From Escherichia coli (GTDB taxonomy: Bacteria; Pseudomonadota; Gammaproteobacteria; Enterobacterales; Enterobacteriaceae), in NCBI RefSeq assembly GCF_030013205.1, contig NZ_CP122648.1: a stretch of DNA of 64,000 nucleotides; one strand, written 5' to 3'. The translations under genes were made by a program, and so were the position numbers. Each line of letters begins with the position of its first letter. Within the stretch, counting starts at the first letter, position 1. Below are positions 26,111 to 28,237 of the stretch, piece by piece. The notes beneath the pieces were generated by a model. The model saw nothing but the letters and a program-made list of their open reading frames with translations, was not told the DNA's origin and searched no databases.

Positions 26111-28237
26111 TTAGTCCTCGTTTACAACCTTTTGCTGGGCGGCTTTTTTGGCCTGAACGCGGGCAATAGCCGCGGCAACTGCCGCTTTGCGCGGATCAAC
26201 CTGTTCTTCTGGTTCTGCGTTAGCCTGTTGCTGTTCCAGCTTGCGCGCTTTGGCACGGGCAATAGCGGCTTCGACGGCAGCTTTGCGCGGATCGACCTGT
26301 TGTTCTGGCTCGGCATTAGCCTGTTGCTGTTCCAGCTTACGTGCTTTGGCACGGGCAATCGCGGCTTCGACGGCGGCTTTGCGCGGGTCAACCTCTTCTT
26401 CTGGCTCCGCATTAGCCTGTTGCTGCTCCAGCTTGCGCGCTTTGGCGCGGGCGATAGCGGCTTCGACGGCGGCTTTGCGCGGGTCAACCTGTTCTTCTGG
26501 CTCCGCATTGGCCTGTTGCTGTTCCAGCTTGCGTGCTTTGGCGCGGGCAATAGCCGCTTCAACGGCAGTTTTACGTGGATCAGCAACGGTTGCAGCGTCG
26601 TTAGTTTGCTGCAGTTCTGCCTGTTTCGCTCTGGCTTGCGCTTTACGGGCTTCCCGTGCTGCAATAATTGCACTGTTATCCGGGCGTTCGCCCTCTTTAA
26701 TCACAATAGGCTGTGTAGCCTGGGCCTGTTTCTCTTTCACCCGCGCCAGAGCGGCAGCAATCGCATCTTTATCTTTGGCTGCAGGTTGAACGGCTGCGCT
26801 CTTATGTCGTTCAAGGCGAGCCGCTTTTTCGCGCTCCAGACGAGCCTGGCGCGCTTCGAAACGCGCTTTGGCTTCTGCGGCGCGCTTTTCTTCCTGACGA
26901 ATAGCCGCAATTTCAGCTTTTTCCTGACGGAAATATTGCACCAGGGGAATATTGCTCGGGCAAACCCACGCGCAAGCCCCACATTCAATGCAGTCGGCAA
27001 TGTTATGCGTGGTGGCTTTATCGTGTTGCTGACCTTTGCTGAACCAGTACAACTGTTGCGGCAAAAGATCCGCAGGGCAGGCGTCAGCACAGGCGCTACA
27101 CCGGATGCAGCTTTGTTCTTCCTGTGATTCGCCAAGTTCATTGGCAGAGGGAGCTAACAGACAGTTGGTAATCTTTACGACCGGGACATCCAGCCATGGC
27201 AAGGTAAAGCCCATTAACGGGCCGCCCATAATCACCATTTGATCGGTAGAGGGGCAGAATCCGGCATCATTCAATAAATGACGCACTGGCGTACCCAGCC
27301 GTGCCCAGACGTTGCCCGGGCGTGCGATTGCTTCGCCAGTCAGGGTCACGACACGCTCGGTAATCGGTTCGCCATCAATAACGGCACGTTTCACTGCATA
27401 AGCAGTGCCGACGTTTTGCATTAATACGCCGATATCGGATGAACGCCCGCCATGTGGAACCTGCTTCCCGGTCAGAATGTAGGTTAATTGTTTAGCGCCG
27501 CCAGAAGGATATTTGGTTGGAATCACCCGCAGAGAAATATCGTGAGAGTCCGCCAGCACCGCGCGCAGCATGGAAATCGCCTGCGGTTTGTTATCTTCAA
27601 TGCCGATAAGAATTTCGCGTGGCTGCAGAATATGCGCAAGAATGCGAATACCCTCTACGACCTGAGCCGCGCAATCCTGCATCAAACGGTCATCGGCGGT
27701 AATGTACGGCTCGCACTCAGCAGCGTTGATAATCAACGTTTCAATCTTATCTCCGCCGCCCAGCAATTTAACGCCTGTCGGGAATCCCGCACCACCCAGA
27801 CCGGCAACACCAAACTGATGAATACGCTCGATTAACTCTTCGCGACTGCGAGAGCGATAATCGTCCCAGCCGTCGCGCGGGATCCAGCAGTCTTCGCCAT
27901 CGGCATCAATAATCACGCTTAATTCAGCTAAAGCTGAAGGATGAGCCGTAGAGTGGGGCGCAATAGCCGTAACGGTACCCGAGGTGGGCGCGTGAACTGG
28001 CAGCATTTTGCCGCGTCCACGGGTAAGCGGCTGGCCGCGCAGTACTTTATCGCCGACGCTAACGCACAACTCACCTTCAGCGCCAATATGTTGTTTCAGT
28101 GGTATGACAAAACGCTGCGCCAGTGGTACCTGGCGCAGGGGCGTACCGTTGGACTGGGTTTTCATCTCCGGTGGATGGATGCCGCCGTTGAAATCCCAGA
28201 TTTTATTTTTTCTGAATGCAGAGAATAACTTAAGCAT
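26111..28237 (-). CDS. rsxC: ion-translocating oxidoreductase complex subunit C (708 aa here, with C-terminal tandem repeats)
   Basis: N-terminal RnfC-type domain with two CxxCxxCxxxCP ferredoxin motifs, then a 32-aa repeat region. Confidence 0.9.
26150..26640. repeat. 96-bp (32-codon) in-frame tandem repeat array inside rsxC, ~4.5 units
   Basis: Near-identical 96-bp units read directly; protein repeat [32 protein letters not shown]. Confidence 0.85.

Follow-up and report, generated by a model that had tools for sequence, protein, structure and literature searches.

A four-unit ms11 repeat array at the 3′ end of rsxC in Escherichia coli, very probably a natural allele

We analysed a tandem repeat in rsxC, the gene for the cytoplasmic NADH/flavin mononucleotide/[4Fe-4S] subunit of the Rsx (Rnf-type) complex, in a stretch of 64,000 nucleotides from Escherichia coli (contig NZ_CP122648.1, assembly GCF_030013205.1), hereafter the window. 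The array is the published variable-number tandem repeat (VNTR) ms11, a marker in multiple-locus VNTR analysis (MLVA), and as such the finding is already known; we are highly confident that the window carries a natural four-unit allele of this in-frame, protein-coding minisatellite at the 3′ end of the gene. The original prediction, made from the letters of the window, had described a 96-bp in-frame tandem array in the C-terminal region of RsxC, an open reading frame (ORF) of 708 amino acids (aa) and a difference from K-12 of exactly one 32-aa unit, and each of these was borne out. Tandem Repeats Finder reported a single array, 423 bp in total, and a pattern of this kind cannot arise by chance; we resolved it into four full units followed by a diverged terminal unit (Table 1). 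K-12 MG1655 rsxC (b1629) is 2223 bp long and encodes 740 aa, as the prediction had stated, rather than 708, with five full units and the terminal unit. The two genes differ in length by exactly 96 bp, or 32 aa.

The identity of the array with ms11 is direct. An E. coli MLVA primer table names the locus ‘ms11 (rsxC)’ (PMC11773471), its unit is given as 96 bp with an offset of 286 bp (PMC4644529), and the forward primer is listed in three papers (PMC8215070, PMC4644529, PMC11773471). The Shigella/E. coli panel that contains ms11 is traced, via PMC4644529, to Gorgé et al. (2008, J Clin Microbiol 46:1026). Both primers match the window uniquely as well as exactly, with zero chance matches expected, and they flank an array whose 96-bp unit varies in copy number between strains. 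The predicted amplicon (26063..26732) is 670 bp, which corresponds to (670 − 286)/96 = 4.0 units, and 766 bp is expected for K-12. The published E. coli alleles of this same locus (approximately 4.5–7 units) overlap the range of two to seven found here. The typing papers sized amplicons on gels, and they do not discuss the encoded protein repeat, its conserved motif or the unit sequences.

The gene assignment itself is secure. The rsxC frame is the only long ORF in this region with homology support, and within aa 14–452 Pfam recognizes RnfC_N (PF13375, 3.5e-32), Complex1_51K (PF01512, 1.4e-47), SLBB (PF10531) and Fer4 families. Two [4Fe-4S] ferredoxin motifs are present, so that the domain content is that of RsxC/RnfC, and the match to the NCBIfam equivalog for RsxC (NF003454) scored 865 bits, compared with a cut-off of 345. 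The protein is 100% identical to WP_063118622.1 from E. coli CFSAN018748. The rsxABCDGE gene order of the window agrees with the K-12 annotation and places the gene at its proper position in the operon. Each full unit consists of a conserved 18-aa motif followed by a 13-aa linker, with an optional V at the end. The four full units of the window are 85–91% identical at the DNA level, with 9–14 differences per 96 positions. The terminal unit shares its first 14 residues with the others, diverges from there to the C-terminus, and is orthologous in every strain examined. No Pfam domain was found in the older part of the tail that precedes the array (aa 453–551). By eye, this part holds degenerate helix segments resembling decayed copies of the motif, and the RsxC tail may have grown through earlier rounds of the same duplication process.

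Table 1. Features of the rsxC region of the window
Feature	Coordinates	Strand	Remarks
rsxC coding sequence	26111..28237	-	708 aa
Tandem array	26160..26582		Tandem Repeats Finder: period 96, 4.4 copies, 88% matches, 0 indels, score 629
Four full 96-bp (32-aa) units	26201..26584	-	aa 552–679
Unit u1	26489–26584	-	
Unit u2	26393–26488	-	
Unit u3	26297–26392	-	
Unit u4	26201–26296	-	
Terminal diverged unit and stop codon	26111..26200	-	aa 680–708; 0–2 nt differences between strains
Older part of RsxC tail	26585..26881	-	aa 453–551; rich in Ala, Lys, Arg, Glu, Gln; predicted helical
ms11 forward primer site (GAAACAGGCCCAGGCTACAC)	26713..26732	-	exact match
ms11 reverse primer site (CTGGCGCTGGTTATGGGTAT)	26063..26082	+	exact match, inside rsxD
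rsxA	28808..29389		rsxABCDGE operon context
rsxB	28230..28808	-	upstream of rsxC, overlap of 8 nt
rsxD	25052..26110	-	directly downstream of rsxC; unique flank on right side of array
rsxG	24428..25048		placed by ORF order in the window
rsxE	23729..24424		placed by ORF order in the window
Mechanical antisense ORF	26006..27127	+	373 aa, TTG start; held open by the repeat
Mechanical antisense ORF	26187..26789	+	200 aa, TTG start; Cys/Ser/Ala-rich low-complexity product
Mechanical out-of-frame ORF on the rsxC strand	26122..26673	-	183 aa, GTG start; held open by the repeat

The comparison of unit number across E. coli genomes that the original prediction had called for was carried out on 5,426 complete genomes. 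The array was sized with a BLAST query in which its two unique flanks were joined, so that the span between the matched pieces gives the array length. Queries with the whole gene, or with the array and its flanks, gave strand-dependent partial alignments unusable as sizes, and were replaced by the joined flanks. Flank identity to the window reaches 99.9% or more in 18 complete genomes, every one of them a swine isolate; at least five accession series are represented (members include CFSAN018748, K_EC180, two O139:H1 strains, an ETEC series and EC556/571/581), and all 18 show the four-unit spacing, a few deviating by 1–2 bp. The strain of the window thus belongs to, or matches at rsxC, a swine-associated lineage fixed for four units. 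A first systematic sample of 59 rows taken down the whole ranking contained four units in 10, five in 36, six in seven and seven in six; a second, obtained with the K-12 flanks, contained three units in one, four in 10, five in 36, six in six and seven in six. When the 118 rows are pooled, 61% have five units, 17% four, 11% six, 10% seven and 1% three. A two-unit allele also exists, giving full-unit alleles of 2, 3, 4, 5, 6 and 7 among complete genomes. The array of the window together with its flanks could be aligned end to end in 1129 of 5424 complete genomes. The four-unit allele therefore occurs naturally and commonly, in unrelated lineages and in about one complete genome in six.

Annotated protein lengths tell the same story of whole-unit steps: 644 aa in APEC IMT5155; 676 aa in TUM1886 and UC4316; 708 aa in NU14, AST215, 510016 and ETEC1703; 740 aa in K-12 and many others; 772 aa in EDL933; and 806 aa in ST131 and Z0117EC0013, in which two of the seven units are 33 aa long. 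Copy number is constant within clones, with five units in K-12 derivatives, six in O157:H7 and O55:H7, seven in ST131 and four in the swine lineage. The two longer units of ST131 and Z0117EC0013 are units 4 and 6, which contain an extra glutamine (LEQQQQANA), pointing to 3-bp slippage in a CAG/CAA run nested inside the 96-bp repeat. Further nested slippage of this kind is suggested by other genomes, in which the array spacing departs by +3 or +6 bp.

The original prediction had left open whether the shorter protein reflects genuine copy-number variation or a collapse of the repeat during assembly, in which case the strain would really have five or more units and an assembler would have merged near-identical copies. 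There are precedents for trouble at this locus. Draft contigs from seven loci of other species break off within the array, short ‘RsxC, partial’ entries number in the hundreds in protein databases, and in the complete genome CFSAN004176 a single hybrid unit occurs alongside a frameshifted rsxD. The failure seen in the drafts is, however, a break in the contig and not a silent collapse, and the units of the window, which differ at 9–14 of 96 positions in an array of just 423 bp, are distinguishable from one another. The four-unit count was reproduced in all 18 complete genomes of the same lineage, and four units also occur in approximately 17% of complete genomes from unrelated lineages. Assembly collapse is very unlikely, and the 708-aa RsxC is to be accepted as correct; of the two possibilities raised by the prediction, genuine variation in a known VNTR stands and collapse does not.

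A number of records illustrate how the repeat behaves in databases. The drafts whose contigs end in the array are of E. albertii, Citrobacter, Klebsiella, Raoultella and Enterobacter, and searches with the tail retrieved mostly ‘RsxC, partial’ fragments of 54–161 aa, some of which represent hundreds of sequences; the rsxC repeat routinely breaks short-read assemblies. In CFSAN004176 (NZ_CP014583.1; locus L003, positions 1501–3243) rsxC is an intact ORF of 580 aa with an array of one hybrid unit, and the labels of the Prokaryotic Genome Annotation Pipeline read ‘incomplete, missing C-terminus’ for rsxC and ‘frameshifted’ for rsxD. This array, the sole record of its kind that we noticed, represents either a real and complete contraction or a genuine assembly collapse. 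Annotation pipelines can mislabel short rsxC alleles as pseudogenes. In protein P0015, RsxC repeat units are joined to the C-terminus of the IS1 protein InsB, a sign that IS1 may have inserted into the rsxC array of one complete E. coli genome. In P0022 and P0026 a DmsC-like N-terminus is joined to an RsxC tail of the Salmonella/Citrobacter type, suggestive of a deletion or rearrangement that ends in the array.

The exact 96-bp difference in length raises the question of whether the window allele arose directly from a five-unit array like that of K-12 when one particular unit was lost. Such losses evidently can occur on the K-12 haplotype: removal of one 96-nt block from K-12 rsxC yields rsxC of ETEC1703, with no mismatches over the whole gene, and the deletion breakpoint is ambiguous within 47 nt that are identical between neighbouring units, a pattern which would fit in-register slippage or unequal exchange between units. 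In addition, the nearest outgroups of the window by flank identity (99.0–99.1%) mostly have five units. The unit sequences nevertheless speak against a direct origin. When the single best 96-nt block was deleted from the arrays of K-12, PRO_A-1551 and MEW, 26, 23 and 33 mismatches, respectively, remained over 627 nt in comparison with the window, whereas the other 1653 nt of rsxC differ by only 9–36 nt (0.5–2.2%) between the window and these strains; a single deletion from any of the three was rejected as the source. First units are orthologous among strains (2–7 nt differences), as are terminal units, whereas internal units are shuffled, with no colinear orthology. Moreover, the four-unit alleles of NU14 and AST215 have unit sequences that differ from those of the window, indicating that the four-unit size arose more than once. 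ETEC1703 and 510016 both have four units and flanks 100% identical to K-12, and the array of 510016 has 11 further differences, giving two distinct four-unit arrays on one flank haplotype. Judged from these alignments, the array of the window is not the K-12 array minus one unit, and a direct K-12-like origin is improbable.

In our proposed explanation, copy number at rsxC would change by whole units, in register, either by replication slippage or by unequal recombination, and in E. coli would drift between two and seven while remaining stable within clones. The original prediction had named slipped-strand mispairing as the mechanism; unequal recombination between units fits equally well. Selection preserves the reading frame and the near-invariant 18-aa motif. 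An intragenic tandem repeat that is hypervariable and has short alleles marked, in some annotations, as pseudogenes might also be taken as the signature of a phase-variable contingency locus, in which repeat number switches RsxC on and off. The unit of 96 bp is, however, three times 32, and all the intact alleles retrieved (580–806 aa) are in frame and have the same C-terminus, with copy number fixed within clones. No change of repeat number among these intact alleles shifts the frame, and we give the contingency-locus explanation practically no credence.

The original prediction was also right that the array creates spurious ORFs in other frames and on the opposite strand: the array is open in four of the six frames, which gives rise to three mechanical ORFs (Table 1). 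The most striking of these is the antisense ORF 26187..26789, because differences between the units in its frame comprise 57 synonymous and nine non-synonymous changes, and together with its length of 200 aa this might suggest a real overlapping gene. In the rsxC frame itself, 54 codon differences are synonymous and 12 non-synonymous, and 57 of 69 pairwise differences between the window units fall at third codon positions. The wobble positions of the antisense frame coincide with those of rsxC, so that its synonymous appearance is a consequence of frame geometry, and the synonymous-excess test cannot separate these two frames. Differences in the remaining four frames are almost all amino-acid-changing (63–65 of approximately 68 codon differences in the frame of 26122..26673). 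Conservation at the protein level over 80 species falls in the rsxC frame, the antisense ORF starts with TTG and encodes a low-complexity product, and RefSeq records over the array annotate rsxC and no other gene. Antisense coding of 26187..26789 was accordingly dropped. The extra ORFs are by-products of the repeat and not genes, and the likelihood that any of them is a real overlapping gene is negligible.

With respect to the encoded peptide, each unit would form a basic, Ala-rich helix of approximately 23 residues followed by an acidic, Pro-containing linker of 8–9 residues, so that the RsxC tail would be a string of helices. An AlphaFold2 model of aa 434–708, built from the single sequence, places one helix of approximately 23 residues in each unit, with non-helical linkers of 8–9 residues between the helices; with a mean predicted local distance difference test score of 76, a predicted template modelling score (pTM) of 0.23 and no defined tertiary arrangement, the model is weak and was used for secondary structure only. 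Six basic residues and six acidic ones balance out in each unit, which is neutral overall; the motif has a charge of +4 and is followed by an acidic linker. Eisenberg hydrophobic moments of 0.15 (motif) and 0.21 (24-residue helix) were obtained, and basic residues lie all round the helical wheel. At these low values the possibility of a membrane-binding amphipathic helix was rejected.

We also scanned 80 Enterobacteriaceae loci, with one genome per species. Every complete RsxC among them has a DPRK-anchored array that starts at residue 548–562, with two to seven anchors and a period of 30–48 aa depending on the genus. The 18-aa motif is 96–100% conserved at every position in 258 non-terminal units from the 80 species, and the linker, which makes up the remainder, is free to vary in both length and sequence. 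Within the motif, 9.1 of 18 third codon positions differ per pair of units, compared with 0.41 of 36 first and second positions, so that synonymous sites are saturated. The conservation therefore reflects strong selection on the peptide rather than recent homogenization of the DNA, and the motif is under extreme purifying selection across Enterobacteriaceae.

When 1.84 billion protein cluster representatives were searched with a profile built from the unit, only 173 matches were obtained at E ≤ 0.001, and the motif is essentially confined to RnfC/RsxC tails. Among the 38 matches of at least 200 aa, 26 match the RnfC core; the other 12 look, by eye, like C-terminal pieces of RnfC or frameshift read-throughs, with the exception of one Zn-ribbon protein. 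Distant RnfC tails have related units built around a 13-aa motif, with up to 13 matched stretches per protein. The exception (P0225; locus L097, positions 226–846, contig ERZ18242496 NODE_5800) is a protein of 206 aa with PF13717 at its N-terminus, an acidic linker and two DPRK-type motifs. Its gene lies directly upstream of rnfD-rnfG-rnfE-nth, at the expected 3′ end of rnfC, 225 nt from the end of a contig with 3x coverage. The gene may encode a split or variant tail protein of RnfC, or the assembly may be chimeric; with misassembly possible so close to the end of a metagenome contig of low coverage, we did not accept the protein as a second context for the motif. Searches of the tail against Pfam, NCBIfam and PDB sequences gave neither a domain nor a structure past the first unit. 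A word-indexed search of proteins, queried with the tail, yielded short, partial RsxC fragments almost exclusively, and no further family. Solved RnfC structures (PDB 8ahx, 7zc6 and 9eri) share the catalytic core with RsxC (query residues 14–498, E 4e-121 to 2e-83), but these proteins are 435–496 aa long and do not have the repeat tail.

An orthologous array has been described in Erwinia amylovora, where a 40-aa tandem repeat in RsxC, present in 0–5 copies depending on the strain, was proposed as a typing marker (Sci Rep 2023, PMC10587187). It begins at the same residue (aa 553) with almost the same 18-aa opening motif, and the unit is longer than the 32 aa of E. coli on account of a linker that is longer and different in sequence. 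Zero-repeat alleles are reported to be common in Erwinia amylovora (PMC10587187), whereas in E. coli one doubtful record comes close. Other in-frame VNTRs used in MLVA are CVN001/ms07 in ftsK and CVN004 in tolA (PMC11773471). As in rsxC, these are protein-coding repeats in which copy number varies between strains and the frame is unbroken; they differ from it in unit length (39 and 15 bp) and reside in other genes with other unit sequences. The ftsK and tolA VNTRs are situated in low-complexity linker or helical regions.

Several points weigh against our interpretation. The four-unit count of the window strain itself comes from its own assembly, and the identical CFSAN018748 record may be the same genome, in which case it is not independent evidence. 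The population figures derive from two systematic samples of 59 rows each and do not amount to a census. How units are gained and lost is deduced from end states, and what we propose for the function of the tail draws on conservation and on the single-sequence model with its low pTM. With low confidence, we suggest that the tail may serve the cytoplasmic Rsx subunit as a docking element that is flexible and multivalent. A more specific alternative is that the array is not a neutral spacer but a multivalent arm that captures acidic redox partners of the complex, flavodoxin, ferredoxin or SoxR for example. The K-12 annotation names the Rsx complex a SoxR-reducing system, and our literature search turned up no account of what the C-terminal part of RsxC does or binds, nor any functional study of the motif. 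We consider a capture arm doubtful; if it were true, the lineage-specific copy number (four here, five in K-12, six in O157:H7 and seven in ST131) would tune the speed at which the SoxRS oxidative-stress switch is reset by Rsx.

Overall, the feature flagged in rsxC is a benign and well-known polymorphism, and the array is a reliable size marker, yet also a known trouble spot for short-read assemblies. The conserved 18-residue motif does not alter the status of the finding as already known. The research value of the locus is incidental and lies solely in the motif as an unexplored conserved element of the Rsx/Rnf complex, which could justify a small functional study.

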